A stretch of DNA of 64,000 bases from an uncultured Acidobacteriota bacterium (GTDB lineage: Bacteria; Acidobacteriota; JAAYUB01): NCBI GenBank assembly GCA_964436005.1, contig CAYTBK010000005.1, positions 3,041-67,040 on the forward strand. Reading direction: 5' to 3'. Of this stretch, positions 9,493 through 62,224 are shown in pieces; position 1 is the first letter of the stretch; every line of letters begins with the position of its first letter. A program made the translations under genes and the position numbers. The notes beneath the pieces were generated by a model, which was not told the origin of the DNA, did not search any database, and saw nothing but the letters and a program-made list of their open reading frames with translations.

Positions 9493-9652
9493 GGGCGAAG
9501 TTTCCAATTCATCGCTTTCGGCGGGAGTCTGCCGCTCGCGCCGGCGCCCGTCCGGTTTCCGGGAGGTGTCTGTGGGATTCCACCGCCTGGTCCGCAGGTT
9601 CAAGGAAGGCCTGGGCCGCTGCCGGGGGCGGGCCCGGGTGTCCCGTCGCGCC

Positions 9653-36755: not shown

Positions 36756-36811
36756 AGTCGTTTCCCCCGTTACGGTCTCTGCCCGATAGATGTCACGATC
36801 GATGAAATGTT

Positions 36812-37426: not shown

Positions 37427-37663
37427 CTGCCCTGCCGGAATCAAGTGGGAAGCAAGGTCGGGGCGGGTGCGGCTTTCCAGCGGGGTGCACGCCGTTTCGC
37501 GGCGTTTTCCGGAGGGGGCCCCGGGCGGGCGTTCACCGGGCCAGGCGTGCCCGCGGCCGTTACAACTTTGGCAAGTCCCGGTATTTCGGAAAGTGAAAAA
37601 CGGGCGGTTCGGGGTAAAATCAGAGGAAAACACCGGTATGAATCTGTCCTGGGGAGGTTGCCG

Positions 37664-40600: not shown

Positions 40601-43600
40601 GGCTCCCGGGCCGTGGACAACACGGTGCGCGGGTGCCGGCTCGGCTTCGACGCGGAGTCGCGGCTCGCCCCGTCCGCGCTGGGGCTGAACAACGGCATCA
40701 TCGTGGAACAGGGCGCGTCGAGAAACCACATCGGCATGGATTCCGCCCCCCTCGGGCGGAAGATGCTGCCCGGAGAAGGGGCTCCCGCCGGCAACCTCAT
40801 CGCCAACTGCCGGGAAAACGGCGTGTGGATCCGAGACGACAAGACGACGGGCAACGTCCTGAATTGCAACCTGATCGGTTCGACGGACCAGTCCCTTGCG
40901 CCCGGCAACGGCAACGGGGTGAGCATCGCCTGGTCTCCCGCCAACTGCGTGGGCGGCGCCAGCGAGTACGCCGGCAACCTCATCGCGGGCAACGTCCTCA
41001 ACGGAGTGCTGGTGACCGGCGAGGCGGCCACGGGGAACCGCATCACCCGCAACTGCATCTACGGCAACGGCATGCTGGGCATCGACCTGAGCCACCTGGA
41101 CGGCGTGGGCGACGGTCCGGAAGCCGATCTCGCGCAGTGCAAGCGGCGCGGGCCGAACCACTTCATGCCCGCTCCGGCCATCGAGCGCTACGGGTATCGG
41201 GAAGGGGACGGCGCCGGCCTGTTCACCGTCTGGGGCAAGACCCTCCCGTTCGCCCGCGTGGAAGCCTACCAGGCGGAGCGGGACCCGTCCGGCTTCGGCG
41301 AGGGGCGGCTGTTCCTGGGGAACGCCGAGGCGGATGCCACCGGCGCCTTCGCCGTGACCTTCCCCCTGGCCGTGGGCCAGGCCGTGACGCTGCTGGCGGA
41401 AGCGGAAGGGGACTCCTCGGAGTTTTCCTCCTGTTTCGTCATGAACGCCGTGAGCGACGACCGCAGCGTCGACGACATCCGCAACGTCGAGAACATGCTC
41501 CTCTTCGCCGTGGGCGTGCCACGCCAGTGCGAGATCCTCTTCGGGCGCTCCCAGGAGGAGGGGGTGACCCTGAAGACCAGCCTGACCATGAATGGGGAAG
41601 CTCCCGTCACCGATACCGTCACGCTCAAGGCGCTCCGCAGCCTGGTGGCCTTCCCCATGACGGTGCCGACGGCGGGCACGGGCTGGCTGGACCTGGAACT
41701 GGCCGGCTCCGGGAGGGAAACCTCCCAGGCCAGGCTGCTCGTGTACGCCGACGACGCGGAGGCCGTCGAGCCGGGGGCGGACCTTTCCCTGACCCGCACC
41801 CTGGACGGCCCCACGCCCTTCCGGCTGTTCAAGGTGTCGGGGCAGGCCGGGCAGATCCTGGACGTGCAGGTCTCGAGCGCCGACGCTTCCGACCCGGCGG
41901 TGTACCCCTGCCTGAAGATCTTCGGGACGCGCGCCTCCTACCTGAACGTCAACAGCCGCAACGACGAGAGCACCCACGCCTTCGCCCAGGTCCGGCTGCC
42001 GGAGTCGGGGGACTTCTTCATCGCCGTGTCGGACCTGTACCTGCGGCAGGGAAGCGCCATGAGCTTCGTCCTGAAAGCCGTTCTGAACGACAATCCGGAC
42101 CCGGTGGAGGAATCGTTCGGGGTCCGGGACCCCCTCGCCATGCCCGGACGGCCCGGCCGCATCGCCGTGGGCGACCTGGACGGCGACGGCTGGCCCGACA
42201 TGGTCTCCACCCTGCCGTCCGCCCGGGCGCTGGCGGTTTCCTACAAGATCCCGGGGGAAACGGCCGGTTTCGCCTCCCCTGTACAAGTGAATCTGGATTA
42301 TGAGCCCTCCGACGTCACCCTCGAGGACGTCGACGGGAACGGCCGGCTGGACATCCTCGTCGCCGACGCCGCGGGCGGCGGGGTGCACGTCCTCTACAAC
42401 CCCGGGCGCGTCAGCGAGGCCAGCGGGGCCAGGCTGACCCGCGCGGGCCGGTTCTTCCGGGCCAGGGCGGCCGGCGGCGACGTGGGCGGCGGGGGCGACT
42501 TCAACGTGGACGGCTTTGCCGACTACGCGCTGCTCTCCTCCAGCGGCGGGACCCTCCAGGTGTTCCTGAACGACAAGACGGGGCTGCTGGTCGCCGGCCA
42601 GGTCATTTCGGCCGGCCCGTCTCCCCGCGGCATGGCCGTGGACGATTTCGACGTGGACGGTGCGCCCGACATCGCCGTGGCCGTTGCGGGAGACAACGAG
42701 GTGCCCGTGTTCCAGGGCGCGGGGGACGGCAACTTTTCCCTGGCGCGCACGCTCACCGGCTGCAGCACGCCGGTGGACGTCAAGTCCGGCGACCTCAACC
42801 TGGACGGGCTGCCCGACCTGCTCATCCTGAACCAGGGCGCCGCCCAGTTCCAGGGCTTCCTGGGGGTGGGTTCGCTCGAGTTCTCCTACCAGCAGGCGCA
42901 GTCCACCGGCGCCGTCCCCAACTCCATGGCCGTGAGCGACCTGAACGTGGACGGCTACAAGGACGTCTCCGTGGCCTGCACGGGCGACGGCAAGATCTAC
43001 GTGTACATGGGGTCCTCCTCCGGCCTCTTCCTCCCCCAGGCCGTCCTGACGAACTCCGGCGACATCAGTTCGCTGGTCTACTACACCACCGGCAACGGGG
43101 CGACCTATTTCGGCGTGCCCCCGGACGACGAGTTCGTGTCCGTGCTGCAGAGCGAGTACCTGGTCATCGATTTCCCCTGCGCCGAGACCGGCGGCGCCTT
43201 CGATTCCGCCTTCGCCCTGGCCAACCCCTCCGCGGAGGACGCCCTGGTGTATCTGTCGCTGGTGGGGCCGGACGGCAAGCTGGTGGTCGATCCCACGGTC
43301 AGCGACCCCGTGGCGGTCACCCTCAAGGCGCACCAGCAGATGTCCTTCTACGCCCAGGGTTTCTTCGGGGACGGGGCCGCGAACTACGCGGCCTGGATGC
43401 GGGTTTCCACCCAGAACCAGGCGGTGAACGGCTTCACCATCCAGGTCCTGACCGGCAGCACCCTGGCCATGGACGGAGCCGGGGGGCAGACCACGGCCAG
43501 CCCGAGGCTCTTCCTCCCGGTCCCGGGCGCTCTTGGCGCGGCGGCGGTCGGGCAGTACAGCGTCACCAACCCCGGCGAGTCCGCCACGGGCGTCACGGTG

Positions 43601-44506
43601 ACCTGCCGGAAAGCCGACGGAACGGTCACGGGCGGCACCTATTCCTTCACGCTGGCGGCCGGCGGGCGCCATTCGTTCGCCTACGCCAGTTGCTTCGCCG
43701 ACGCGGAGGACGCCCTTTCCCTGGAAATCGTGGCCGGCGCGCCCGTGGAATGCCAGTACCTGACCATGGTGTCCGACGTGATGGAGGCGGTCCTGCCGGG
43801 CCTGCCGGTGGACGAGACGGCCACTGGCACGGCGACCCTCTATCTTCCCCACTTCGCCGAGGGAACCATCTTCCGTTCCACCATCGAGCTCTTCAACCCC
43901 GCCGCCGCGGCCGCCGCCGTAACGGTGAGCGCCTGTTCCGACGACGGGTCGCCCCTCGGCGCCACCGCCTCGCTGTCCATTCCGGCCGGAGGCGCCCTGC
44001 GATCCTCCATCGCCGACCTGACCGGCCTCGACCCCGCCTCGGCGGCCGTCATCCAGGGCTTCCTGAAGGTGGAGTCCAGTCAGGCCGGGCTGCTGGGCTG
44101 CGTCACCTTCATGGACCGGGCGGGGGCGGTCATGGCCTCTTCCCTGCCGCTCCAGTCCAAGGTGGGGAACCGTTTCCTCTTCTCGCACCTGGCCGTGGGC
44201 ACCATCGGCGGCATTCCGTACTTCACGGGCATCGCCGTGCTCAACACCGGAGCGGCGGACGTCACGGCCCACTTCACCGTCTACGACATGCTCGGCAACA
44301 AGACGGGCGAAGCCGACGCGCTCATCCCCGCCGGCCGGAAGGTGAGCCGGATGCTCACCGATTTCGTGGGCGGCCTGCCGGCCCAGAACGGCGGGTACGT
44401 GACCCTGACGGCGCCGGAGGGTTCCTCCCTCATGAGCTTCGAGATCTTCGGTGACGATGACCTGACCTTCCTCTCCGCCGTCCCGGCGCAGACCCTGGCC
44501 GAGTGA
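37664..44506 (+). CDS. giant secreted multidomain protein: RCC1 repeats, Ig-like/Fn3 domains, right-handed beta-helix, PPC-like domain, FG-GAP propeller, C-terminal shared modules
   Basis: SD ggggagg; signal peptide; WGxNxxGQLG x7; beta-helix repeats; DLDGDGWPDMVS/DVDGNGRLDILV FG-GAP; C-terminal module ...LMSFEIFGDDD. Confidence 0.85.
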   Translation: MRKGSAGGRLGAAAVWTLLVGCLLAVHSVPLRAGYYTYSWGSNAYGQLGDPAAGTVQLSPYFISALGDSYLTVHAGNGFSVALLSEGMVKAWGKNNQGQLGNGTMGTDMPYPVAVSGLTDVKALSAGDSHVLAVRFDRTVWTWGANTSGQLGDGTSASRDVPSMVGQLAGVVAVAAGGGHSLALRDDGTVWAWGGNSQGQLGIGDTRNRWTPVQVPGLTGVAVIACGKDHSLALKCDGTVWAWGSNDKGQLGIGSSASYVASPAQVRTLGADEASKAMALAAGARHSVAVAADGTAWAWGWNAYGQLGNGGTSDASSPVRCKLADGGETVAVAGGSGHTLAIRTNTGEANFNIVWAWGRNREGQLGVSSLQDKIDPVSTGLGQVSSLSAGYNHSLAQASMVATAPAILFPPLGGDVLRGSSATLTVGASGKPRLQFQWYRGPQYCTTDPVAGAVYPTFVTPPVTAEVSYWVKIQCEDGYVCSTAAVLTPVEGPTITRQPNSPAGCFGQSVSISLSASGTRPLKYHWYEGERGDTSKPVGSNSEAYSLVIEETKKFWVRVTNDYGQADSETATVTLRQAVGILSHPSPTSVYAGESASLVVVPVGDGVTGQWYRGASGDTSAPVGTGLTLNTGPLTASADFWARLTNPCGVADSRAARVTVLTGGPVAPGDVRAVNTSSTAVLLTWFSGNAATAQIEIQRKTGAGGTFAHVATVRGDLTSWSEDGLVSNETYCYRLRAVHVGVASAWSNEACAWLQTCAVPQAKTAGAQVLGASSAVLRGSVVSTQCGATAWFEYGPTLEYGSFSNRISVGQGPGETRFSTQLDGLQNGSVYHFRAAAQNEAGTVYGEDMVLEIHVGTWVVGTLDDPAAGKTGDALSLREALALAEAAAGSDQQIVTFDQSLPAPRIVRLNGPLPPFQRGNVTLEGTMPGSNGGPGTILVTWADGANVNRENAFFSILSPGNVLADLTIGGSNGDGIRILGSRAVDNTVRGCRLGFDAESRLAPSALGLNNGIIVEQGASRNHIGMDSAPLGRKMLPGEGAPAGNLIANCRENGVWIRDDKTTGNVLNCNLIGSTDQSLAPGNGNGVSIAWSPANCVGGASEYAGNLIAGNVLNGVLVTGEAATGNRITRNCIYGNGMLGIDLSHLDGVGDGPEADLAQCKRRGPNHFMPAPAIERYGYREGDGAGLFTVWGKTLPFARVEAYQAERDPSGFGEGRLFLGNAEADATGAFAVTFPLAVGQAVTLLAEAEGDSSEFSSCFVMNAVSDDRSVDDIRNVENMLLFAVGVPRQCEILFGRSQEEGVTLKTSLTMNGEAPVTDTVTLKALRSLVAFPMTVPTAGTGWLDLELAGSGRETSQARLLVYADDAEAVEPGADLSLTRTLDGPTPFRLFKVSGQAGQILDVQVSSADASDPAVYPCLKIFGTRASYLNVNSRNDESTHAFAQVRLPESGDFFIAVSDLYLRQGSAMSFVLKAVLNDNPDPVEESFGVRDPLAMPGRPGRIAVGDLDGDGWPDMVSTLPSARALAVSYKIPGETAGFASPVQVNLDYEPSDVTLEDVDGNGRLDILVADAAGGGVHVLYNPGRVSEASGARLTRAGRFFRARAAGGDVGGGGDFNVDGFADYALLSSSGGTLQVFLNDKTGLLVAGQVISAGPSPRGMAVDDFDVDGAPDIAVAVAGDNEVPVFQGAGDGNFSLARTLTGCSTPVDVKSGDLNLDGLPDLLILNQGAAQFQGFLGVGSLEFSYQQAQSTGAVPNSMAVSDLNVDGYKDVSVACTGDGKIYVYMGSSSGLFLPQAVLTNSGDISSLVYYTTGNGATYFGVPPDDEFVSVLQSEYLVIDFPCAETGGAFDSAFALANPSAEDALVYLSLVGPDGKLVVDPTVSDPVAVTLKAHQQMSFYAQGFFGDGAANYAAWMRVSTQNQAVNGFTIQVLTGSTLAMDGAGGQTTASPRLFLPVPGALGAAAVGQYSVTNPGESATGVTVTCRKADGTVTGGTYSFTLAAGGRHSFAYASCFADAEDALSLEIVAGAPVECQYLTMVSDVMEAVLPGLPVDETATGTATLYLPHFAEGTIFRSTIELFNPAAAAAAVTVSACSDDGSPLGATASLSIPAGGALRSSIADLTGLDPASAAVIQGFLKVESSQAGLLGCVTFMDRAGAVMASSLPLQSKVGNRFLFSHLAVGTIGGIPYFTGIAVLNTGAADVTAHFTVYDMLGNKTGEADALIPAGRKVSRMLTDFVGGLPAQNGGYVTLTAPEGSSLMSFEIFGDDDLTFLSAVPAQTLAE

Positions 44507-47210: not shown

Positions 47211-47240
47211 CCGTAGGCGCCTTCCGCCGGAAGGCGCACC
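47211..47240 (+). repeat. REP-like element (GTAG head + 9-bp perfect palindrome)
   Basis: ccGTAG-gcgccttcc-gccg-ggaaggcgc immediately after a stop codon; second copy at 62022. Confidence 0.6.
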
Positions 47241-47824
47241 CGCAGGCAGGATCTCGGGCGCATCGTGCGCCGCCCCGGAGTGTGGCGGCGAGTCGGCGAG
47301 CCGCCGCTTTCGGCACGGTCCATGGGCGAAAGCGGGCCCGTACCGACCGGACATCCTCATGCATTTCGTCGTGGCCTTCGTTCGGCTCGGAGGCATATTG
47401 CAGAACCCGGTTTCCGGTGCGGCACGGGCGCCGGTTTCGTTCTGCTTCCGCAGGCGAGGGACGTGTGCGGAAAGCGGCAGCTCGGGGCTCGCTGCCGCAC
47501 TCCTGACCTTCGGCTTCGGCACGGCAGCATGGAACGAGAATGCACCGGGCCGCACCCGGCGCCTTTCTCTTTGCCCTTGGGTGCGCCTTGCAGCGCAAGT
47601 CGCCTTCGCCCGGCGCTTGCGCCCCCCCGTGCCCCCGTGGGCCCGATGAGAGAATCCGCCAACCGCGGCCGGGAAGCCTGTTTCTTTTCTTGATCTTTGC
47701 CGGGCCGTCGGCAGGTCTTGCGGGAAGCCCATCCCTTGCCGGAATGCCGGGGCGGGCCGTGCAGCCCCCGATCAGTTTCCCGCAGGAAAACGATAACCAT
47801 AGCCCGACAATCCAGTTACCAAGA

Positions 47825-47961
47825 TCTTTCCCGTAGGGATCAATTTCCATGGGGTATCCGAGCCAATCGAATCCGAACGTCTGCAGGGTATTCATGCCCT
47901 CCGGGCAAGGGCACCGGGGAACGAATCCGGCGGCTATGGACATGTATGCCCTCCGGGCAAC
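47825..47961. repeat. composite dispersed repeat, copy A
   Basis: Units tttcccgtagggatcaat and 2x attcatgccctccgggcaa; ~85% identical to the reverse complement of 57625-57842. Confidence 0.6.
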
Positions 47962-47963
47962 CG

Positions 47964-48107
47964 AACAGCCCCGCTGTTTTTTCTCTGTCGGGACCCGATC
48001 AGTGCCCTTCCCACGCCATCGGCGTGGGATACCTCAGCCCGGGGTTGGCGTTTCGCCAACCCCGGGAAAGAGCGTCACACAACCGTGAATCCCTGAAGGG
48101 GATTCAC
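47964..48107. repeat. cluster of four hairpins, three of them perfect palindromes, in a convergent intergenic region
   Basis: aacagc-ccc-gctgtt+T-run (47964-47982); cccacgcc/ggcgtggg (48010-48028); 13-bp cccggggttggcg/cgccaaccccggg (48038-48066); gtgaatccc/gggattcac (48085-48107). Confidence 0.5.
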
Positions 48108-48213
48108 GGGCGTACGGAAAGGATGACGACGGCAGCTTCTGCCAAAATCCAGGTGCGCCTTGCATCGCCAGGCGGAAGTTCTCTTTAATTTCTGGTCGTC
48201 GATGGTTTGGACG

Positions 48214-49164
48214 TCAGCGTTCCGGGGGAGGATGAGACAAAAAATGCTGCCGGGCGAACTTCCTGGCCTTGGGATAGTGCCACCAGTTGTGCCAGGCAGC
48301 CTTCCGCAGCAGCCGCTTCTCGAGAACGAGGCTCGCGGTCTTTTGCCAGACCATGCCGTCGACCTGGGTGAACAACCGCTCCACGAGTTCCAGGCAGTAC
48401 GGGCGCAGGAAGTTGGCCTCCGGGGTGTGCCAGTCCCCCTCGATATTGTCGGGGAAGATGAAGATCAACAGCCCGCCCGGCTCGAGCGCCCGGATCAGTT
48501 GGATGAGTAATTCCAGCGGGTTCAGGGTGTGTTCCAACACATCCATGACGTGGATGACGTTGTGGCGGCCGAAGACGGTCCGCCTCCTGGTCCGGACCCG
48601 GCACTGGTCGCCGGTGACCTTGTCGTGGGTGGGGATTCTCTCCACCTTGACTTGAGGGACAGAGCGGAACTTATGCCGACAGTATGCCACCAGAACCGGG
48701 TTGATGTCGCAGAGATGGAAGTCGAATCCCGGCTGGTCGACCAGCGTTTCCACCAGGTTGGCAGTTCCGCAGCCGTAGTCCAGAAAGGACATTTTCCTGT
48801 CTACCGATTGTTGCTGGAAATCAAGAAGGATTTTTTTCAGATAGGAATAGCTGGCCAGGCTTTCGGGGGTGCGCCGATAAATCTCATTCTGCAATACGTT
48901 TACGCCGAGCGCGTTCCACCCCCCCCCTAAACCCTTGACATGCCAACATTTATCGCGTATGATGCCCTCCCGGATGATTTTCGTTTCCGCAGAATCGTAA
49001 CGCTCCACCCAGGGTTCGAGTTCGCCGAACGGATGCGGCCAATCCTGGACCCGGTTGCCCAGGAAGACTTGGTACACCAGTTTGATGTCCGCCACCGGCA
49101 TCTCAAAGTGATCCGCGAAATCCTTGATCCATTGCAATTGCGTGAAATCCTTGTCGTTGTTCAT
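48214..49164 (-). CDS. class I SAM-dependent methyltransferase (lower GC than surroundings)
   Basis: SD aaggaga; LDYGCGTANL and VIHVMDVLEH motifs; GC noticeably lower (~50-55%). Confidence 0.75.
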   Translation of the reverse strand: MNNDKDFTQLQWIKDFADHFEMPVADIKLVYQVFLGNRVQDWPHPFGELEPWVERYDSAETKIIREGIIRDKCWHVKGLGGGWNALGVNVLQNEIYRRTPESLASYSYLKKILLDFQQQSVDRKMSFLDYGCGTANLVETLVDQPGFDFHLCDINPVLVAYCRHKFRSVPQVKVERIPTHDKVTGDQCRVRTRRRTVFGRHNVIHVMDVLEHTLNPLELLIQLIRALEPGGLLIFIFPDNIEGDWHTPEANFLRPYCLELVERLFTQVDGMVWQKTASLVLEKRLLRKAAWHNWWHYPKARKFARQHFLSHPPPER

Positions 49165-49360
49165 CCTGTCGTCTCCTTGGCAAAGGCGCCGGAAGCAACC
49201 CGCGGCCGCCACCTCGCCCTGGCTGAAAATAACTCAATTTCCCGCCAAGAGCATGGAATGTCAAGCGAAAATACGCTGTAGCTACTTCTATTGTATTTAA
49301 GATGTAGCTTTCCGGTTCTCTGCGCCATCGCTGGCGGGAGAGGGAGAAAGTAGCGAACCG

Positions 49361-49993
49361 CTATTCCGACTCCAGCGCGATGCCGTCCAGGAAGACCACC
49401 GCGTCGACGGCCCTGCTGTCGACGCCCTTCTCCAGGCTGAACAGCCCGGTGAGGCCGGTGCTGCCGTCCGTGGCGAATTCGGCGGTGAGGAACTGCCACT
49501 CGCCTTTCCGGGCCAGGTCGTACTTGGCGGAGAAGTGGTTCTGCACGAAGGCGCCCCGGCGGTCGACCTGGCACTTGAAGAAGGGCGGCAGGTCGGGGGC
49601 GCTCCATTCCTGGACGTTCACCCAGCCGGACAGGCGGTAGCGGGTCCCCGGCTGCAGGTCGAAGACGGGGCCGGTGAGGAAGTTCCAGGCCTTCACCGGG
49701 CTGGCCCCCTCCGCCTGGAGGGCGGCGGCGCCGTCGTGCCGGGTGGCGGTGGACACGGAGAGGCGGACCGAGGCGGCGGCGGGCTTCCAGTCCGCCAGGC
49801 CCTTTTCGAAATCCCAGCCCAGCACGGGCCGGAAGCCCCGGGCGGGCGAGGCGGCGCCGCTGACGGCCGCGTTTTCGTCGGTGTCGAGGTCGTCGATGGT
49901 CTCGAAAGTCGTCTCCTTCTGGCAGCCGGACAGCAGCACGGCCACGATGGCCGCCAGCAGCAGGCGAAGGCCGTGCGACAAGGTCTTTCCCAC
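49361..49993 (-). CDS. hypothetical lipoprotein
   Basis: GTG start with SD gaggagg; lipobox LLSGC. Confidence 0.55.
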   Translation of the reverse strand: MGKTLSHGLRLLLAAIVAVLLSGCQKETTFETIDDLDTDENAAVSGAASPARGFRPVLGWDFEKGLADWKPAAASVRLSVSTATRHDGAAALQAEGASPVKAWNFLTGPVFDLQPGTRYRLSGWVNVQEWSAPDLPPFFKCQVDRRGAFVQNHFSAKYDLARKGEWQFLTAEFATDGSTGLTGLFSLEKGVDSRAVDAVVFLDGIALESE

Positions 49994-50098
49994 GGTGGCA
50001 CCTCCTCGGAAAAAGGGAATTATAGGGGAAGGGGGGCCTGATTCAACAGGAAAAGCGGCGGGCAGCGCTTGCCCGTCCGGCGAAAGCCCGGAAGGGGC

Positions 50099-50956
50099 CT
50101 ATGGTTTGACCGCGTATATGAAAAGGAGGTCATGGCCGAAATAGGCGTGCCTGCGGGAGTGTACGTTCACGAGGGCTGTTTTTGAGAAACCGAGTTCCGC
50201 CAAGGTCTTGAGAATGTCCCAACCGAAACGGGTGTAGCAAAGGCAGCCATGGCTTTTCCGGAAGGGGTCGCCGTGGTATTCGGGCGGCGACAGGAATGTC
50301 AACGTCCCGTCCGTTTCTCTTCTGGCCAAAGGAAACGACTGATCCAGTTCGTGGCAAAACGGCACGCTCAGCAGCAGGCGCCCGCCGTGGTTCAGGCAGC
50401 GGTAACACTCCCGCAGGGCGAGGCGGAAGTCCGGCACGTGTTCCAGCACGTCGAAGGCCATCAGCCAGGCGAAGCGGTCGCCTTCAAACGACAGGTTCTG
50501 CAGGTCTTCATGCCGGATTCGGCGAAACTTCAACCGGGAAAGCCGTTTCCAGCGCTTCTGGCCCGGCCGGCACCGGTCGCCCAGATATTCGCTGCCGGTC
50601 AGCCCTCCCCGCGCCCGGCGGGCGATCGCTTCGTATAATGGTGTCTGTGATTCGCCCAGGTACAAGGGACCGGCGATATGTCCTCCGGAGAGAAAGTCCA
50701 GCAGGTGGATCGAGGCCCGGGCCCGGTTGTTCAACCGGCACCCTGGGCAGGTCAACTGCTCCCGCCAGCTGACGTGACCGCGGGTTACCCTTTCGGTCGG
50801 ATGGCAACAGAACGTTTTTTCGCTGTTGCAGACATGGCAAAATCCCGTGACGGTCGACTGCTTGAAGGCCGGGACGGGGTCCGGGAAAGCAGAGGCCTGC
50901 ACGAATTTTTCGTATTCCTCACGAGAATGTAAAAATGTAATCTCTGGAGAAGGCAT
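50099..50956 (-). CDS. SAM-dependent methyltransferase with N-terminal Cys4 zinc ribbon
   Basis: CHVC...CPGC; FDVLEHVPD methyltransferase motif. Confidence 0.7.
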   Translation of the reverse strand: MPSPEITFLHSREEYEKFVQASAFPDPVPAFKQSTVTGFCHVCNSEKTFCCHPTERVTRGHVSWREQLTCPGCRLNNRARASIHLLDFLSGGHIAGPLYLGESQTPLYEAIARRARGGLTGSEYLGDRCRPGQKRWKRLSRLKFRRIRHEDLQNLSFEGDRFAWLMAFDVLEHVPDFRLALRECYRCLNHGGRLLLSVPFCHELDQSFPLARRETDGTLTFLSPPEYHGDPFRKSHGCLCYTRFGWDILKTLAELGFSKTALVNVHSRRHAYFGHDLLFIYAVKP

Positions 50957-51114
50957 GCCCAAGGAAATATTCCCGAACGGCGGCCATGTCAAGGGAAACC
51001 GGCAGGCGCCCACCCTCTCGGCGAACGGGTTACGAGGCCTGCTCCGGAGGAGTCCCGGATTCCCGATGTATGGTCTTCCGCCGTCTGTATGGCCGAAGAT
51101 CGCCGGTAGACAAT

Positions 51115-51924
51115 CTAGAATTTCGACGTTTCGAAAAGCCCCTTGAAGTTGGTGAAATCGATGTAGACCTGGCCGCCCGAGGCCTCCGTCAGGGCGGTGA
51201 GGGCGGTGTAGGCGAAGCTGTCCATGAGAGCGTCCTGCTCGTTGAGGGTGTGGGCGACGTACCGCATGTCGCCGGGGAAGAAGGAGGACGTCTGCCAGTC
51301 GTCGTTCCGGAACAGGTCCCCGCCGGCCACCTTCCAGAGCTGGACGGCGGTCAGGGTGACCTTCTCGTTCTGGAAGAACCGGATCAGCTCGCCCAGCGGC
51401 CTGTACTTGTCGATGGAGAAGACCTGGGCCCCCAGGACCAGGGGCCTCTGCAGGGTGGCGATGCGGTCGGGCCGGATGTTGGCGCGCAGCCACTCCTTGG
51501 CGGCTTCGGGGTTCATGCACTCCACCATCACCCGGTCCCGGCCGGTGGTGAACAGCACCACGTTCGCGTTCCGCAGGTTCCAGTTGACCAGGATGGCCAG
51601 CAGGTCCTTGACGGGCGTGGTGTTGCCGGAAGGGTTGGTGAAGCGGTAGCCCTTGGGCGGCCAGTGGAGCTCCGCCGCCCGCCCGTCCATGAGTTCGTAG
51701 ACGTTGCTGAGTTCGAACCCGTAGACGCTGACCCGGTCACCCGGGGGCAGTCGCCGCAGGTAGGCTTCGAAAGCCTTGTGGAAGCCCAGCGTGTCCGCCA
51801 GGGGGGCCATGTCCCGCTGGATGATGAAGACGTGGCGCGCCCCGCCGGCCGGGGGCGCCTCCGCGGCGCAGAGGCCGGACGTCACGGCGAGGGCGAGGCA
51901 AAGGGCGCACCAGGTTTTTTTCAT
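51115..51924 (-). CDS. hypothetical secreted protein (possibly vWA-like)
   Basis: SD aggaga; signal peptide MKKTWCALCLALAVTSGLCAA. Confidence 0.5.
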   Translation of the reverse strand: MKKTWCALCLALAVTSGLCAAEAPPAGGARHVFIIQRDMAPLADTLGFHKAFEAYLRRLPPGDRVSVYGFELSNVYELMDGRAAELHWPPKGYRFTNPSGNTTPVKDLLAILVNWNLRNANVVLFTTGRDRVMVECMNPEAAKEWLRANIRPDRIATLQRPLVLGAQVFSIDKYRPLGELIRFFQNEKVTLTAVQLWKVAGGDLFRNDDWQTSSFFPGDMRYVAHTLNEQDALMDSFAYTALTALTEASGGQVYIDFTNFKGLFETSKF

Positions 51925-52039
51925 GGGAGGATCTCCTGTTGAACAGTATTCGGTACCGTGTACGTTGGAAACGGACAAACCATTCGAGGCAGTGCGCCGA
52001 AAAACGGTTCAACGGTCACGGCGGTAGAGCCGGCGCGGC

Positions 52040-52528
52040 TCACGCCGGCAGGACGGCGCCGAGCACGGCGCGCACGTAGGCGTACATGCCGGGCGCCCCG
52101 GACTCGCGCGGGCCGGCCACGTTGAGCACGGCCGGTCGGACGGCGCGCAGCCAATCCCGAACCCGGGCCGTCGCTTCCGCCACGGTCAGCGCGTCCCGGT
52201 CGACGACCAGGAAAGGCCGGGCGTGCTGCCGCAGCAGGTCCAGGGTGAGGGAGGTTCCGCCCGACGGGGGCCCCGCCGTGAACACCAGCGTGGCGTCGGC
52301 GTCCCGGACGTTCCGTTCCGTCCGGTCCCGGTAGTCTGGGGAGTCCAGTTCCTCCAGGAAGGCATAGCGTGCGGGAATCGGCCCGTCCTCGGCCAGGCGC
52401 CCCCGGGGCACGGCGCCGCCGCAGGGCACGCCGGCCGCCAGGGCGGCGTCCAGGGCGGCCCGGTCGGCCCCGGTCTGGCCCCCGGAAATCACTTTCGCCA
52501 CCGGGGCGGTGTCCTGGTTTTCCCTCAT
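52040..52528 (-). CDS. SLOG-superfamily 'putative molybdenum carrier'/YpsA-like protein
   Basis: ISGGQTGADRAALDAALAAGVPCGG motif; SD aggagtg. Confidence 0.6.
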   Translation of the reverse strand: MRENQDTAPVAKVISGGQTGADRAALDAALAAGVPCGGAVPRGRLAEDGPIPARYAFLEELDSPDYRDRTERNVRDADATLVFTAGPPSGGTSLTLDLLRQHARPFLVVDRDALTVAEATARVRDWLRAVRPAVLNVAGPRESGAPGMYAYVRAVLGAVLPA

Positions 52529-52686
52529 GGCCGTTCACTCCTGTGGTTCGGGCGTCCGCCGGCCCGGGGCGGCGCCCGGCCGGCAAATTCCCGGTGCCAT
52601 TTCCGGGCGGCTGGCGTACAATACCACGTTCGTCTCCGGAAAGGATTCAATTTGTTGTAAATACAATATTACGAGGAGAGTGCAAG

Positions 52687-54402
52687 ATGGGGAAGAGGAT
52701 CCGGACTGTCGCCCTGGTCGCCTGCGCGGCGCTGCTGGCCGTCGGCCTGACGGGTGCGGCATCGGCCCAACAAAAGGGAGGACGCGACATGGAAAAAGAA
52801 GCCCAGGCGTTTCTGCAGCGGTTCACCGAGCAGATGGCCCCGCTGGAAAAAGAGGCGGCCATCGCCAACTACGACGCCACCATCAGCGGGAAGACGGAGG
52901 ACTTCGCCAAGGCTTCCGAGCTGGAGATCAAGATGAACGCCCTGCTGGCCGACAAGGAGACGTTCCGGCGGGTGAAGGAGCTGCGCGAGTCCAAGGCCGT
53001 CAAGGACCCGCTGACGGCCCGCCAGCTGGAAGTGGTCTACCTGTCCTGCCTGGGCAAGCAGCTCGACCTGGCCGACCTGGAGGCGCTGGTCCGCAAGCAG
53101 AAGGCCATCGAGGAGAAGTACTACACCTTCCGCGTCGCGGCCCGCGGCAAGACGCTGACGGACAACGACGTGGAGGCCGTCCTGCGCGGGTCCACCGACT
53201 CGGCCGAGCTGCGCGAGGTCTGGGAAGGGTCCAAGCAGATCGGTCCGGTGGTGGCCCGGGAAATCCGCGAGCTGGCCAGGCTGCGCAATGAAACGGCCCG
53301 CAAGCTGGGCTTCGCCGACTTCCACGCCATGCAGCTGACCCTGTCCGAGCAGGACCCCGCCGCCATCGGGAAGCTCTTCGACGAACTGGACGCCCTCACC
53401 CGCGACGCGTTCGCCGCCCTGAAGAAGGACATGGACGCCGTCCTGGCCAAGCGCCTGGGGATCGAGGCCAAGGACCTCCGGCCCTGGCACTACCAGGACC
53501 GCTTCTTCCAGGAGGCGCCGCGGATCTACCCCGTGGATTTGGACAAGTTCTACCAGGGCAAGGACGTGGTGGACCTCAACCGCCGCTATTTCGCCGGGAT
53601 CGGGCTGCCGGTGGAAGACATCCTCGCCCGCAGCGACCTCTACGAGAAGCCGGGCAAGTACCAGCACGCCTACTGCACGGACATCGACCGCTCCGGCGAC
53701 GTGCGCATCCTCTGCAACGTCAAGAACGACTACAACTGGACGGGCACGCTCCTGCACGAGCTCGGCCACGCCGTCTACGACAAGTACATGGACCGGCAGA
53801 TGCCCTGGCTCCTGCGCACGCCGGCCCACACCTTCACCACCGAGGCGGTGGCCATGTTCTTCGGCCGGATGGCCGCGTACCCGGGCTGGCTGCAGGCCAT
53901 GGCCGGGGTGCCGGCAGAGGACGCCCGCAAGGTCGCCGGCGACTGCGCCAGGGCCCTGCGCCTGCAGATGCTGGTGTTCAGCCGGTGGGCCCAGGTGATG
54001 TACCGCTTCGAGAAGGCCCTCTACGAAAACCCGGACCAGGACCTGGACGCGCTGTGGTGGCGGCTGGTCGAGAAATACCAGATGGTCAAAAAGCCCGAGG
54101 GGCGCCAGGCGCCCGACTGGGCGGCCAAGATCCACGTGGCTACGGTGCCCGCCTACTACCACAACTACCTGCTCGGCGAACTGCTGGCCTCCCAGTTCCT
54201 GGCCTGCGTGACCGGGAAGCTGGCCCCCGCCGGCGCCGCGGCGGACCCGTCCTTCGCCGGCCGCCCCGAACTGGGCGCCTTCTTCCGCGAGGCGGTTTTC
54301 GGGCCGGGCGCGCGGTACCCCTGGAACGACATGATCAGGAAAGCCACCGGCGAACCCCTGACGGCGAAGTATTTCGCCCGCCAGTTCGTCGGCGCGAAGT
54401 AG
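52687..54402 (+). CDS. M2-family peptidyl-dipeptidase (ACE-like), secreted
   Basis: Signal peptide; HELGHAVY zinc motif with downstream EA ligand. Confidence 0.8.
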   Translation: MGKRIRTVALVACAALLAVGLTGAASAQQKGGRDMEKEAQAFLQRFTEQMAPLEKEAAIANYDATISGKTEDFAKASELEIKMNALLADKETFRRVKELRESKAVKDPLTARQLEVVYLSCLGKQLDLADLEALVRKQKAIEEKYYTFRVAARGKTLTDNDVEAVLRGSTDSAELREVWEGSKQIGPVVAREIRELARLRNETARKLGFADFHAMQLTLSEQDPAAIGKLFDELDALTRDAFAALKKDMDAVLAKRLGIEAKDLRPWHYQDRFFQEAPRIYPVDLDKFYQGKDVVDLNRRYFAGIGLPVEDILARSDLYEKPGKYQHAYCTDIDRSGDVRILCNVKNDYNWTGTLLHELGHAVYDKYMDRQMPWLLRTPAHTFTTEAVAMFFGRMAAYPGWLQAMAGVPAEDARKVAGDCARALRLQMLVFSRWAQVMYRFEKALYENPDQDLDALWWRLVEKYQMVKKPEGRQAPDWAAKIHVATVPAYYHNYLLGELLASQFLACVTGKLAPAGAAADPSFAGRPELGAFFREAVFGPGARYPWNDMIRKATGEPLTAKYFARQFVGAK

Positions 54403-54415
54403 CCGGGAGGATGCG

Positions 54416-56122
54416 ATGAAAGCGAGGCGGACGCTGGCCGGGTGGTTGGTGGGCGTTTTCGCGGGGCTCTGCCTCGGGTTTGTTCCCGTGCGGGGGGAGG
54501 GGGCCGCTTCGGTCCTCCCCTCCCCGGCCACCCGGGCCGAGGCCACGGACTACCGGGAGACTTCGAGCCACGCCGACGTGCTGGCCTTCGTCCGCGCCCT
54601 GCAGGAAAAGAGCCCCTGCCTGCGGGTGGAAACCCTGCTGGTCACCCCCGAGGGAAGGGAGGTGCCCCTGGTGGTGGCGGCCGACCCGCTGCCCGTGTCC
54701 GCCGCCCTCGCCCACCGCGACGGGCGACCGGTCGTCTACCTCCAGGCCAACATTCACGCCGGGGAAGTGGAGGGGAAAGAGGCGCTGCTGATGTTCCTCC
54801 GCGACCTGGTGGCGGGGAAGCGCCGGGAGTGGCTCCGCTCGGCCGTCTTCCTCGTGGTGCCCATCTTCAACGCCGACGGCAACGACCGCATGTCGCCCGA
54901 CAACCGGTCCTACATGCCCAACCCGGAGAAGGGGGTGGGCGTCCGCCAGAACACGCAGAACCTGGACCTCAACCGCGACTACGTCAAGACGGAAACGCGG
55001 GAAGTCCGGGCCGTGCTGGAAAAGGTCCTCCTGACCTGGGACCCCCTGGTGTACGTCGACCTCCACACCACCGACGGCTCCTACCACCGGGAGACGGTGA
55101 CCTGGACCTCGCCGCAGGGGCCGAACGTCGACCCCGCCGTGAGCGGCTTCGTCTGGGACCGCCTGTTCCCGTCCCTGGACGGGACGTTGCGGGCCCAAGG
55201 CATCCACCCGCTGCCGTACGGCGACTTCGTGGACGACACCCAGCCGGAGAAAGGCTGGGCCACCTTCCCGGCCTACCCCCGCATCGGCGTCGACTACGTG
55301 GGCATGCGCAACCGGTTTTCCATCCTTTTGGAAATGTATGCCTACGCCCCATTCCCCGTGCGCGTGGCCCACAACCTGGCCTTCCTGGACGCCCTGGCCG
55401 ACTATGTGCGGAAGCATGCCGGGGAAATGGCGGAGCTGGCCCGCGCCGCCGACCGCCGGGCCGCGGCCATGGCGGCGCTGCCGCCGGCGGAACGGCCGTC
55501 CGTGGCCCTGGACTACGAGCGTTCGCCGGAACCCGCCCCCACCGTGACCATCGAGACCTTCGAGGTGGAGAAGGTGGCCGACCCCGTCGTATACCCCCGC
55601 TTCCGGCCGCGGCTGGACCGCCCGAAAACCGTCACGGTCCCCAACTACCGGAAATACCAGGCCAAGGTCTCCCGACGCCTGCCGGCCGCCTACCTCATCG
55701 CGCCTGGCTGCGAAGCGGCGGTGGCCCAACTGCTGCGGCACGGCCTCCGCGTCGACCGGCTGACCGGGCCGGCCGCCCTGGAGGCGGAGATCTTCGTTCC
55801 GGCCGCGCTGGAAGCCGAGACGCGCCCTTCCGAGGGGCACCAGCGGATCCGCCTGCAGGGCGAGTGGAAAAAGCAGCCGGTTTCCGCCGGGGCGGGGTGG
55901 TACGTCATTCCCATGACGCAACCCATGGCTTTCCTCGTCGCCGTCATGCTGGAACCCGAACACCCCGACAGCCTGGTCTCCTGGAATTTCTTCGATTCTT
56001 TCCTGACCCAGCAGTGGAGCGGCAAACTCCTCTCCCCGCCCGTCTACCGGCTGGAGGAGTGCCCGCCGCTGGCGACCCGGTCCCTGCTGCCGGTCGAGGC
56101 CGCCCGGTTGACGGTATTCTGA
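54416..56122 (+). CDS. M14-family zinc carboxypeptidase, secreted
   Basis: HAGEVEG, NRDY, DLHT motifs; SD gggagg. Confidence 0.8.
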   Translation: MKARRTLAGWLVGVFAGLCLGFVPVRGEGAASVLPSPATRAEATDYRETSSHADVLAFVRALQEKSPCLRVETLLVTPEGREVPLVVAADPLPVSAALAHRDGRPVVYLQANIHAGEVEGKEALLMFLRDLVAGKRREWLRSAVFLVVPIFNADGNDRMSPDNRSYMPNPEKGVGVRQNTQNLDLNRDYVKTETREVRAVLEKVLLTWDPLVYVDLHTTDGSYHRETVTWTSPQGPNVDPAVSGFVWDRLFPSLDGTLRAQGIHPLPYGDFVDDTQPEKGWATFPAYPRIGVDYVGMRNRFSILLEMYAYAPFPVRVAHNLAFLDALADYVRKHAGEMAELARAADRRAAAMAALPPAERPSVALDYERSPEPAPTVTIETFEVEKVADPVVYPRFRPRLDRPKTVTVPNYRKYQAKVSRRLPAAYLIAPGCEAAVAQLLRHGLRVDRLTGPAALEAEIFVPAALEAETRPSEGHQRIRLQGEWKKQPVSAGAGWYVIPMTQPMAFLVAVMLEPEHPDSLVSWNFFDSFLTQQWSGKLLSPPVYRLEECPPLATRSLLPVEAARLTVF

Positions 56123-56441
56123 CGCCGGCCCTTTCCCAGCCATGGTTTCATTGACGAAGGCTTGACACCTCGCCCCCCGGGTACGCGGAAAAATCTGCCG
56201 CCCGGGGGGCACTTTCTTCCCGCCGCCGACCCTCCGGTCCTTTCCCCTGCCGTTGCCGCCCTGCCGGCTTCCGGATGCCCCGCGACGAAGGGGCGTCCCC
56301 CTGTGCCGCAACATCTTGTGGTCTGCCCTGGAGGCCAGCCAAACCGGTAGACGGGCTTTTCCCGGGGCGCTGGCGCTGCCCGCTCCCCGGGCCCGCCCCC
56401 GGCGGGTTCCCGGGCCGATCCCGGGGAGGTGGGGATTTGTT

Positions 56442-56457
56442 TGGCACGTGACGTGCT
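56442..56457 (+). promoter_or_regulatory. candidate sigma54 (-24/-12) promoter of the flagellin gene
   Basis: TGGCACG-tgac-GTGCT vs consensus TGGCACG-N4-TTGCW, ~40 nt upstream of the ATG. Confidence 0.45.
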
Positions 56458-56498
56458 TGGATGGGGGTGTTTGTCGATTTTGCGGATGGGAGGATGCC

Positions 56499-57311
56499 AT
56501 GTCAATGAGTGTACTGAACAATCTGGCCAGTCTGCAGGCCCAGAACGAGCTCACGGTCAATGCCATGGGGATGCAGAAGACCCTGAACCGGCTCTCGACC
56601 GGCAAGCGCCTGAACACGGGCGCCGACGACGCCGCCGGCCTGGCCATCGCCGACGGCTTGCTGGGGCAGATCAACGCCCTGAGCCAGGCCAGCCGGAACG
56701 CCTCCGACGGCGTCGGCTACCTGCAGGTCGCCGACGGCGCCATGAGCCAGATCACCAACCTGCTTCACCGCGCCATCACCCTGGCCGAGCAGGCAGCCAC
56801 GTCCACCAACGCCGATTCCTGCGTGGTCATCGACTCGGAGTACCAGCAGATCAAGTCGGAGATCGACCGGATCTACACCAACACCAACTACAACGGCACC
56901 GACATCTTCGCCACCACCCTGTCGGTCTTCGTCGGCGACACCACCAGCACGAGCGTCATCGTGGCCTCCACCACCTCCTGGTCGCTCAGCTCGACGAGCC
57001 TGAACCTGGGGAACCTGACTTCCACTGGCTTCGCCACCAACGAGCTGGCCGTTCTCCGCGACGCCCTGGACTCGGTGGCCGGCTACCGCGGCGAAGCGGG
57101 CGCCGTCATCAACCGACTGCGCAGCGCCCAGAACGTCATTTTGACCCAGGTGCAGAACCTCACCACGGCCCAGTCGCAGATCCGCGACGCCAACATGGCC
57201 GAGGAGGTCTCCAACCTGACCAAGTTCCAGATCCTGGCGCAGTCCGGCATGGCCGCCCTGGCCCAGGCCAACTCCAACGCCCAGAACGTGCTGCAGCTCC
57301 TGCGGGGCTGA
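56499..57311 (+). CDS. fliC: flagellin (short, D0/D1-only, 270 aa)
   Basis: SD gggagg; N-terminal LSTGKRLNTGADDAAGLAIAD and C-terminal AQANSNAQNVLQLLRG flagellin signatures. Confidence 0.85.
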   Translation: MSMSVLNNLASLQAQNELTVNAMGMQKTLNRLSTGKRLNTGADDAAGLAIADGLLGQINALSQASRNASDGVGYLQVADGAMSQITNLLHRAITLAEQAATSTNADSCVVIDSEYQQIKSEIDRIYTNTNYNGTDIFATTLSVFVGDTTSTSVIVASTTSWSLSSTSLNLGNLTSTGFATNELAVLRDALDSVAGYRGEAGAVINRLRSAQNVILTQVQNLTTAQSQIRDANMAEEVSNLTKFQILAQSGMAALAQANSNAQNVLQLLRG

Positions 57312-57396
57312 GGCCGCCAGGCGGCTTGAATTTCAACCTGCTTCGGCAGGGTTCTTTTTCCGAACGATTCACGTTTGTCACCCTCCCACCGCAAAA

Positions 57397-57437
57397 GCCG
57401 GGCCCGCCTCTTCCAGGCGCGCCCGGCCGTTTTTTTC
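57397..57437 (+). terminator. intrinsic terminator after the flagellin gene
   Basis: GC-rich stem gccgggc...gcccggc followed by TTTTTTT. Confidence 0.6.
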
Positions 57438-57624
57438 GGCGCCCCTTCCGGGTTCGGGCCCGTCTTCCCGGCGCCCTTTCCGGGACGCGGGATCTCGGCC
57501 TTCCCGGCGCCGCATGCGCGAGCATTCCCGTCCTGGGGTGACGCCGCAACCGCCGCATCGCCGACGCTGGCGGCGTGCGTAGCGCACTGCCGATTCTCAT
57601 CAGGCAAATCATCCGTAGCCGTCC

Positions 57625-57842
57625 GTTTGCCCGGAGGGCATCCATATCCATAGCCGCCGGTTCTGTTCCCTGAGCCCCTTGCCCGGAGGGCATGAATATC
57701 CGTCGAAGTTGCGGCCGTTCAGGCCGGAATTGACAGGGATCCTTCTCGGAAAAGCGCAGTTCGCCCAGTGATATTGATTCCCTACGGGAAACCCCGAGGC
57801 GGATGTTTCGCCTGGCTATGGTCATGGATTCCCTACGGGAAA
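57625..57842. repeat. composite dispersed repeat, copy B (inverted relative to copy A)
   Basis: 2x ttgcccggagggcat units and 2x gattccctacgggaaa units as internal ~50-bp tandem repeats. Confidence 0.6.
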
Positions 57843-58127
57843 ACGACTCTCCCATCGACGGTCGTCTATTTTTTCGGGGCGGCCGGGGCCGTCGGCGGCC
57901 GCTTCCCGCGGGCCCCCGATCTGCTCGGAATCGGCGAAAATCCCTTCCCGGCCGGAACGGCCGGCCGAGAGTAGCCGGGCGGCGCCCGGCCCGCGGGGCG
58001 GGCCTCGCCGGGAAAGGCGTGCCACCTCGGTTGTGGCGCCCGGGAGGGGCGCCGGGATCATGTTCTTCGGAAATTTTCCTTTCCAAACGTTATGAGAGTA
58101 ACACTCGTTTGCCAAGGAGGATTTCCC

Positions 58128-58574: not shown

Positions 58575-58785
58575 TTTTCCCGGCGCCCCTTCCGGGCGCT
58601 TTTCCGTTATTCTCTCCGCTTCACCGGCGGGGGTCCCGCCTTCGGCGGGCCGCCCGCCGGCTATTGTCCCGCCGGCCCGCCGGGCCGGAAGGCGAACCTA
58701 CGCGGCTCCGGCGCCCGGATTTTCTTCCCCTCGTTTGCACGGCGGAGTATAATAAACGATTATTTTGTCGGCGAGGGGGCAGGCC

Positions 58786-62021: not shown

Positions 62022-62050
62022 CGTAGGCGCCTTTCGCCGAAAGGCGCACC
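62022..62050 (+). repeat. REP-like element, second copy
   Basis: ccGTAG-gcgcctttc-gccg-gaaaggcgc; compensatory c->t/g->a change relative to the 47211 copy keeps the stem perfect. Confidence 0.6.
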
Positions 62051-62224
62051 CCCTTTCCCCACCAGGGGATCAAGACACAACGGCCTACCAGTTGGCCGTC
62101 CGCGGGCGTTCAAATCGCCGGCGCCTGTCCACTGCAGCGCCCCTGTGTTCTCCGTGAGAAAATCCGGGAGATCTTTTTCGGGAAAGCGGTGGGTGCGGGG
62201 ATGGTCGCCTGTTCCCGGCCTCCC

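Follow-up and report, generated by a model that had tools for sequence, protein, structure and literature searches.

Two inverted copies of a hairpin repeat near a Y1 transposase gene

We analyzed a 64-kb stretch of DNA (the window) from an uncultured Acidobacteriota bacterium (GenBank assembly GCA_964436005.1, contig CAYTBK010000005.1, positions 3,041 to 67,040), in which two inverted copies of a repeat, termed copies A and B, bracket a 9.7-kb segment next to a gene for a Y1 (HUH) transposase. Pfam bore out the gene content that an initial annotation, made from the sequence alone, had listed for this segment: two methyltransferases, a lipoprotein with a CBM_4_9 domain, a cpYpsA SLOG protein, an M2/M3 peptidase, an M14 peptidase, and a flagellin with both N and C domains. 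Copy A occupies the intergenic region between two convergent genes, whose ends are at 47208 (TPR gene) and 48214 (methyltransferase gene), and copy B lies between the flagellin stop codon (57311) and the Y1 gene. The Y1 gene, which the annotation had placed 290 bp beyond copy B, is a Pfam Y1_Tnp gene that starts 286 bp past it. Beyond the Y1 gene lie pyrG, a DAHP_synth_1 gene of the KdsA type, and a radical SAM gene. The intergenic regions of both copies are crowded with further hairpin repeats.

The two copies, of approximately 196 nt (A) and 228 nt (B), are 83% identical in inverted orientation. Global alignment of copy A with the reverse complement of copy B gave 158/191 identities and a score of 86.5, compared with 8.0 ± 2.9 (maximum 17) for shuffled controls, in agreement with the identity of about 85% that had been claimed for the pair. 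Pairwise alignment of the two regions, which the annotation had suggested as a check, extended across the entire element (MAFFT, 47770-47990 against the reverse complement of 57600-57870), and the start of copy A, annotated at 47825, moved outward to approximately 47774. An inverted-repeat search recovered two pairs of arms, 47886-47969 with 57618-57701 (84 nt, 85% complementary) and 47776-47839 with 57779-57842 (64 nt, 70%).

Each copy is built of four short hairpins, two of the TTTCCCGYAGGRA type and two of ATGCCCTCCGGGCAA, together with the boxes CCATAGCC and GGCTATGG (Table 1). The left half holds the two TTTCCCGYAGGRA-type hairpins, with CCATAGCC following the outer one; the right half holds the two ATGCCCTCCGGGCAA hairpins, with GGCTATGG preceding the outer one. 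Because the two hairpin types are roughly reverse-complementary to each other, each copy forms a nested imperfect palindrome. The self-complementarity scores were 31 for copy A and 57 for copy B (null of 8), copies A and B still aligned with a score of 45.5 in direct orientation, and the predicted fold of copy B pairs end to end. The central spacer of copy B is longer than that of copy A by approximately 31 nt. Tandem duplications of about 50 bp had been described for copy B. These are present, but they are not specific to it: in both copies, the hairpins of each pair are spaced by 51-52 nt. Tandem Repeats Finder did not report these doublets in either copy.

Repeat counts refer to the window only. 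ATGCCCTCCGGGCAA occurs there four times, each time within copy A or B (0.4 occurrences expected; 0 of 100 shuffled sequences reached four), and sites resembling TTTCCCGTAGGGAATC are likewise concentrated at the two copies.

Inverted two-hairpin modules flank the Y1 gene and its homologues

The Y1 protein carries the motifs EDHVHV (DHVH), AWQEGYG (WQ), and DYIDEQQQHHH (Y---Q--HH), as read from its translation. With the NCBIfam models it scored 60.8 bits for IS200, above the cutoff of 55, and 21 bits for REP_Tyr_transpos, far under the cutoff of 80, and its Y motif is of the class 1 type. By length and motifs, the protein appears to belong to TnpA-Y1 subclass 1.2, whose members have a median length of 148 aa, the motifs DH[IV]H, WQ, and Y---Q--HH, a conserved C-terminal tail, and low copy number (Quentin et al. 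2018, PMC6006769). A tblastn search found one Y1 gene in the window. Homologues numbered 1,542, and identities ranged from 54 to 72% among the best 120 listed. Each of three exact Y1 proteins (P0132, P0230, and P0237) had one fixed genomic context across samples, which fits a low-copy resident gene and not a multi-copy insertion sequence.

Unlike the published description of subclass 1.2, inverted two-hairpin modules flank the Y1 gene in the window and in seven other independent loci (8/8). These seven are L042, L043, L046, L047 (Luteolibacter), L048, L051, and L054; L044 and L045 are the L043 locus in other assemblies. The layout was the same in 7/7 homologue loci, with nested inverted hairpins around the Y1 gene: on each side an inner hairpin stands nearest the gene, followed outward by a middle and an outer hairpin, and the last two are separated by (A/T)TTAGCC on the left and by GGCTAAT on the right. 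When the loci are compared, compensatory changes are seen in the stems (anchored flanks of L042, L043, L046, L047, L048, and L051).

A covariance model (R1) was trained on 12 cassette ends, all taken from loci outside the window. Over the whole window and both strands, its top two matches directly bracket the Y1 gene in inverted orientation (Table 1), and the cassette so delimited sits 100 nt from copy B. Applied to the 20 kb of L054, which did not contribute to the model, R1 matched three modules on the - strand before the Y1 gene, three on the + strand after it, and no others. No match was obtained on two Acidobacteriota control loci that lack a Y1 gene (L037 and L039).

On either side of the L054 gene, the three end modules stand in tandem, at 9444-9808 (-) and 10493-10882 (+), with an upstream period of 152 nt; two of the upstream modules are annotated in the source as 39-aa genes.

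Table 1. Window coordinates of the composite copies, the Y1 cassette, and the adjoining module
Feature	Position	Strand	Basis or remark
Composite copy A	47774..47969	+	nested imperfect palindrome; left-to-right orientation that of the Y1 cassette
Copy A left-half outer hairpin TTTCC-CGCA-GGAAA	47776-47789	+	left half
Copy A box CCATAGCC	47797-47804	+	left half
Copy A left-half second hairpin TCCC-GTA-GGGA	47829-47839	+	left half
Copy A hairpin ATGCCCTCCGGGCAA, first	47894-47908	+	motif search
Copy A box GGCTATGG	47932-47939	+	right half
Copy A hairpin ATGCCCTCCGGGCAA, second	47946-47960	+	motif search
Two-hairpin module adjoining copy A: CCCGGGGTTGGCG-AAA-CGCCAACCCCGGG, CTGAGGTA, TCCCACGCC-GAT-GGCGTGGGA	48012..48066	-	RF01687, 27 bits
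Composite copy B	57618..57845	-	element of copy A, inverted
Copy B hairpins ATGCCCTCCGGGCAA	57627-57641 and 57679-57693	-	motif search
Copy B box CCATAGCC on + (= GGCTATGG on -)	57648-57655	+	
Copy B TTTCCCGTAGGGAATC	57776-57791 and 57827-57842	-	motif search
Copy B small middle hairpin AGGCG..CGCCT, retained	~57798-57814		
Copy B box GGCTATGG	57814-57821	+	
Y1 left-end two-hairpin module: middle hairpin, GGCTACTCTC linker, outer hairpin (read on -)	57945..57991	-	R1, 21.5 bits, E 2.6e-4
Y1 inner hairpin GGCGCCC-CTCCC-GGGCGCC	58035..58053	-	75 nt upstream of Y1 start codon
Y1 (HUH) transposase gene, 148 aa	58128..58574	+	Pfam Y1_Tnp, 2e-21; GC3 (GC content at third codon positions) 0.69, atypical for the genome
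Y1 inner hairpin GGCGCCC-CTTCC-GGGCGCT and T-run	58582..58600	+	8 nt past Y1 stop; inverted partner of 58035-58053; looks like a terminator
Y1 right-end two-hairpin module: middle hairpin, GGCTATTGTCC linker, outer hairpin	58640..58690	+	R1, 17.3 bits, E 3.8e-3

The composite copies have the layout of a cassette without its gene

Read from left to right, a composite copy consists of an outer hairpin, 10-13 nt, ATAGCC, the inner hairpins, GGCTAT, 12-13 nt, and a second outer hairpin, which is the layout of the Y1 cassette minus the gene. Composite and cassette modules alike carry (A/T)TAGCC and GGCTA(A/T) boxes 12-13 nt from the outer hairpin.

Gene-less pairs of this kind also occur elsewhere. 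In L051, a complete minicassette of one left end and one right end without a gene lies at ~5700-5900, approximately 130 nt upstream of the Y1 gene; the L051 Y1 gene itself has a right-end module only. L002 contains an inverted pair of canonical modules, at 760-822 (-) and 997-1058 (+), about 175 nt apart, in a locus with no Y1 homologue. The outer hairpins of this pair are TGCCCTCCGGGCA; the boxes, CCAATAGCC and GGCTATTGG, are close to CCATAGCC and GGCTATGG of the window. A second near-identical copy of this pair lies on the same high-GC contig (L006), where R1 scores only the + strand module (1206-1267) and the - strand module was recognized by eye.

Scanning genome contigs for the pattern of two ATGCCCTCCGGGCAA hairpins yielded nine intergenic arrays in metagenome-assembled genomes (MAGs) of Bacteroidota, in which the 15-nt hairpin and a CTA box form tandem or inverted clusters. 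One of these arrays, in L027, lies 80 bp upstream of a subclass 1.2 Y1 homologue. Array and gene are oriented to each other as they are in the window, and a variant of the hairpin follows downstream in inverted orientation. The CTA box stands at positions -12 to -10 in 20-24 of 29 units, including two of the four window units. The hairpin foot of CTATGGATATGG-ATGCCCTCCGGGCAAA in the window differs by one base from that of CTATGGATATAG-ATGCCCTCCGGGCAAA in L033, and GTTTCCCGTAGGGAATCAATATCA is identical to L029 at 23 of 24 positions. The right-half doublet, including its spacer, aligned with L029 with a score of 45, compared with a null maximum of 30. These conserved flanks lay outside the search pattern. 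A metagenome scan for GGCTATGG followed by the hairpin gave one unrelated single match (L035).

Two of the Bacteroidota loci have features of their own. The Bacteroidales subclass 1.2 Y1 gene of L027 (2806-3216, -) is frameshifted right after YIKNQ, and the C-terminal HHKKKSFRDEYLELL... follows in another frame; either the gene has become a pseudogene or the long-read MAG contains a homopolymer error. In L033, from a marine Bacteroidota MAG, a 700-nt array (380-1100) of ATGCCCTCYGGGCAA doublets alternates with TTCCCCNNNGGGGAT doublets and carries CTATGG and CCATAG boxes. This array is a super-cluster of the composite hairpin family that resembles a bacterial interspersed mosaic element (BIME).

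Copies A and B as probable gene-less derivatives of Y1 cassettes

The repeat itself, its hairpin anatomy, the conserved cassette of the Y1 clade, and the hairpin-plus-box units beside a Y1 homologue in another phylum point to a common reading. Copies A and B are likely gene-less derivatives of subclass 1.2 Y1 cassettes, deposited in two repeat-rich intergenic regions and comparable to BIMEs or to REPINs, the paired form of repetitive extragenic palindromes (REPs). In each copy, the hairpin sets from the two ends of a Y1 cassette, left and right, would be joined with the gene missing, giving a small non-autonomous palindromic element. By analogy with the TnpA of IS200/IS605 elements (IS608) and with E. 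coli TnpA-REP, a subclass 1.2 Y1 enzyme may recognize the hairpins when they fold on single-stranded DNA, such as that exposed at replication forks. The same analogy suggests that it would cut close to the CTA box, at the foot of the hairpin, thereby excising, copying, or inserting units into intergenic DNA, where tandem and inverted multimers could then form locally. The bracketed 9.7-kb segment would then be a by-product of two independent deposits and not a functional unit. At these sites, the hairpins probably have no more than a passive role as 3'-end structures (terminator or mRNA stabilizer), for the TPR and methyltransferase genes at copy A and for the flagellin gene at copy B.

Several points weigh against this reading. 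The GC-rich hairpins that flank the resident Y1 gene differ in sequence from those of the composite copies, so the enzyme cognate to the latter could be encoded by a further copy elsewhere in the genome or could have disappeared, and the action of subclass 1.2 on these modules is a predicted pairing of enzyme and substrate. The 64-kb window holds just two composite copies and one extra module. The published survey reports neither REPs nor IS200-type ends around subclass 1.2 genes (PMC6006769). Owing to the degeneracy of their middle hairpins, the composite copies received no score from Rfam (E up to 1) or from R1 (E up to 10); their link to the cassette therefore rests on the boxes, the spacing, the identity of the hairpins, and the bridging loci. 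Of these loci, those from Bacteroidota and the L002 and L006 pairs were retrieved with the window's own 15-mer, so that only their flanks count as independent evidence. For the same reason, a second covariance model that included hairpins retrieved in this way would make the test circular.

One alternative is that two complete Y1 cassettes once stood where A and B now lie and lost their genes by deletion, so that the copies would be relics left in situ and not mobilized miniature elements. Both copies have retained the left-end to right-end order of the cassette, their middle hairpins have decayed, indels separate them, and the frameshifted gene of L027 indicates that decay may occur. We regard this origin as unlikely, as tblastn found neither a second Y1 gene nor a Y1 remnant near either copy, and gene-less pairs recur twice on the contig of L002 and L006. 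Moreover, A and B have a common internal junction and spacer, with 83% identity over the center, which argues for the copying of an element that was already gene-less.

The end module corresponds to Acido-Lenti-1

The hairpin-GGCTAAT-hairpin module of the cassette ends is the Rfam family RF01687, Acido-Lenti-1. RF01687 scored above its gathering threshold on the two cassette ends of L042 and on one of those of L047. At the gathering level (37 bits for RF01687), Rfam returned only two tRNAs in the window; the best RF01687 match there, in the module adjoining copy A (Table 1), had an E value of 8.7e-4 in a 1.2-kb search and remained below gathering. Acido-Lenti-1 was described by Weinberg et al. 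(2010, PMC2864571) as a probable small RNA (sRNA) of unknown function, with 10 covarying pairs in the alignment and no mention of a transposase, and a 2026 preprint still describes its function as unknown. The Rfam seed set contains dozens of dispersed and tandem copies per genome, in both orientations, as well as an additional hairpin upstream that has the same sequence. This distribution is REP/BIME-like.

The match to an RNA family raises the alternative that the hairpin modules are small structured RNA genes or cis-elements, with A and B as paralogous RNA loci, one of them downstream of the flagellin gene. The scores at L042 and L047, together with the subthreshold match beside copy A, the compensatory changes in the stems, the published covariation and grading as a probable RNA, and the placement of copy B after the flagellin gene are consistent with this. 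Nevertheless, we consider it improbable. In 8/8 loci, the modules form inverted pairs around the gene of a DNA-processing enzyme, and a single transcript would carry the motif sequence of only one of the two. Their occurrence in both orientations, in tandem and inverted clusters, and in dozens of copies per seed genome is the signature of REP-type DNA repeats, and covariation in the stems would be expected equally from a DNA hairpin. Terminator and promoter scans were at chance level and gave no promoter-like sites.

A long structured RNA spanning a whole copy was also considered and rejected, given that folding was not better than that of shuffled sequences for copy A (z = -1.0 and -0.7) and marginal for copy B (z = -2.0).

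We tentatively propose, as less assured than the origin of copies A and B itself, that Acido-Lenti-1 is the DNA end module of a REPtron-like subclass 1.2 system and not an RNA gene, and that derivatives like A and B form REP/BIME-like clusters with a nearly unchanged hairpin-plus-box sequence across Acidobacteriota, Verrucomicrobiota, Bacteroidota, and Lentisphaerota. If true, this would imply either repeated transfer of the enzyme-repeat pair between phyla or an unusually tight constraint imposed by the enzyme. The data suggest that a Y1/HUH subclass thought to lack repeats has cognate hairpin repeats, that these repeats are conserved across phyla, far beyond the range of classical REPs, and that an orphan Rfam "sRNA" family would be reclassified as a REP-like DNA element, which would help annotators to avoid calling RNA genes. 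The 148-aa protein and its module of approximately 50 nt would make a compact enzyme-substrate pair that could be tested in vitro. In the searchable literature, which is incomplete, we found no paper that ties Acido-Lenti-1 or any other repeat family to subclass 1.2; this does not prove novelty.

The bracketed segment is a compositional mosaic

The segment had been annotated as partly low in GC, with a visibly low-GC methyltransferase gene, and as a possible composite transposon-like or invertible unit that may have shuffled a flagellin/methyltransferase cassette. Its profile of GC and codon usage did reveal low GC, limited to 48.6-49.4 kb and 50.0-51.2 kb. The two methyltransferase genes have GC3 values of 0.77 and 0.73, and all other genes of the segment range from 0.89 to 0.96, including the lipoprotein gene between them at 0.95. 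The segment is thus a mosaic and not one island, and the methyltransferase genes probably arrived in separate acquisitions, as the CBM_4_9 lipoprotein gene between them looks native.

The M2 and M14 genes (52687-56122) are adjacent in all relatives found (L037-L041), where the M2 peptidase is 65-67% identical, which suggests that they form a conserved two-peptidase unit. The gene order in these relatives, H+-PPase - PTA_PTB - M2 - M14 - GAF histidine kinase, places the pair in a neighborhood different from that of the window. Only the M2-M14 pair is common to these loci and the window, and the composite repeats were not found in them, so they are uninformative on inversion. The window and a Logan contig obtained from a different sample (L001) are colinear across the junction between copy B and the Y1 gene, and the contig shows no alternative junction.

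That A and B delimit a mobile or invertible unit, whether composite-transposon-like or flipped by recombination between the repeats, finds some points in its favor, namely the inverted pair around the segment, the low-GC3 genes just inside copy A (methyltransferases) and just outside copy B (transposase), and the different neighborhood of M2-M14 in relatives, which indicates that the region was rearranged at some time. HUH/Y1 enzymes, such as those of IS200/IS605 and TnpA-REP, work on single-stranded hairpins and are not known to act on long inverted repeats. The repeats themselves are non-coding clusters of hairpins about 200 nt long, the sole transposase gene lies outside the bracket, Pfam and NCBIfam revealed no serine or tyrosine recombinase domain in the open reading frames (ORFs) of 45.9-61.2 kb, and the copies have diverged by substitutions and indels to the point that their longest exact common tract is 23 nt, a marginal length for homologous recombination. 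Together with the mosaic composition and the colinear Logan contig, this makes such a unit very improbable. Two points of the annotation held up: A and B are copies of a dispersed repeat, and the nearby Y1 gene is relevant to them. For the window, palindromic repeat clutter beside its likely enzyme gene takes the place of a mobile or invertible flagellin cassette. A composite transposon in the strict sense was rejected separately: the repeats, of 196 and 228 nt, contain no ORF homologous to a transposase.

Further repeats and neighboring genes

The methyltransferase genes lie at 48214-49212 (-) and 50099-~51100 (-). The ORF of the second extends from 50099 to 51520 and overlaps a better-supported ORF at 51115-51978 (-), so the gene probably starts near 51100. 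The latter ORF (287 aa) has native codon usage (GC3 0.91) and no Pfam or NCBIfam match. No other flagellar gene was found among the ORFs annotated at ~44.5-64 kb around the flagellin gene (56253-57311, +), whose own terminator-like hairpin stands at 57337-57350, ahead of copy B. Orthologues of pyrG in closer relatives are 84-93% identical (93% for P0243, 85% for P0244, and 84% for P0245, the last on an Acidobacteriota contig); the named best matches are all from Acidobacteriota and reach up to 84%, which places the organism in this phylum. Upstream of the segment, a giant ORF of approximately 2567 aa (36806-44506, +) carries RCC1-like repeats with a period of 150 nt at 37.8-38.8 kb, as well as FG-GAP/VCBS-like repeats, and is followed by a gene for an outer-membrane protein of the OMPP1/FadL/TodX family.

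To the right of copy A, three consecutive long perfect hairpins with stems of 9, 13, and 11 bp occupy 48009-48109. The first two jointly produce the subthreshold Acido-Lenti-1 match on the - strand; the third is CCGTGAATCCC-TGAAG-GGGATTCACGG. A GTAG-tagged hairpin family, GCGCCTTYCGCCGRAAGGCGC / (C)GTAGGCGCCTTYCGCCGRAAGGCGCACCC, occurs at 47213-47240 and 62022-62051 (+), with a degenerate inverted copy at 47579-47608. The (C)GTAGGCGCCTTYCGCCGRAAGGCGCACCC hairpins resemble the classical GTAG-REP; the window contains no gene for a class 2 REP-associated tyrosine transposase (RAYT).

Comparison with known repeat-enzyme systems

Like composite transposons and invertible segments, copies A and B are inverted repeats that enclose several kilobases of genes. 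They differ from such systems in lacking insertion sequences at the ends, a recombinase domain among the ORFs of 45.9-61.2 kb, and a uniform foreign composition, and no evidence for a second orientation was seen.

The IS200/IS605 elements, with their palindrome-associated transposable elements (PATEs) and miniature inverted-repeat transposable elements (MITEs), are similar in two respects: the Y1 protein passes the IS200 model, and a gene-less element is built of two ends. In contrast, the end hairpins of IS200/IS605 are on the same strand, whereas the ends described here are inverted. IS200/IS605 elements are also multi-copy with near-identical copies, whereas the window has one Y1 gene and each exact homologue one context. 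Unlike in IS200/IS605, tnpB is not present here.

The system described here would work like a TIRtron (Di Nocera et al. 2013, PMC3733652) or a REPtron. TIRtrons comprise Y1 genes with terminal inverted repeats (TIRs), some of them "double palindromic" and with examples from Acidobacteria, and some of the repeats belong to dispersed families as dimers or clusters (PMC3733652). Their transposases, the TIRYTs, are long, have a C-terminal helix-turn-helix, and mostly belong to subclass 2.1 (PMC6006769), whereas the window protein has 148 aa and no extra domain. Many of their TIRs carry GGGGWSAS, which differs from the boxes found here.

The published RF01687 motif, a two-hairpin module with a GCUA linker, coincides with the cassette-end module, and its seed shares the extra upstream hairpin and the tandem clustering. 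It differs in having been described as a probable sRNA without a link to a transposase, and the composite copies stay below any Rfam score.

The arrangement of REPs, REPINs, or BIMEs with a RAYT gene is known as a "REPtron" and was reportedly described by Nunvar in 2010, by Bertels and Rainey in 2011, and by Ton-Hoang in 2012. As in these systems, short intergenic palindromes occur here as single units, inverted doublets, and clusters; a Y1/HUH gene of low copy number stands between similar hairpins in inverted orientation (the two end modules of Table 1); and a conserved short box marks the hairpin foot. The REP enzyme is of class 2 (Y---NP), whereas the window enzyme is of class 1, subclass 1.2 (Y---Q--HH). 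The tag GT[AG]G of REPs lies at the 5' foot of the hairpin, whereas here (A/T)TAG / CTA(A/T) lies 12-13 nt from the outer hairpin, and, unlike in REPs, each end carries two or three different hairpins. Finally, classical REPs are species- or genus-specific, whereas the hairpin-plus-box unit described here is nearly identical across phyla.

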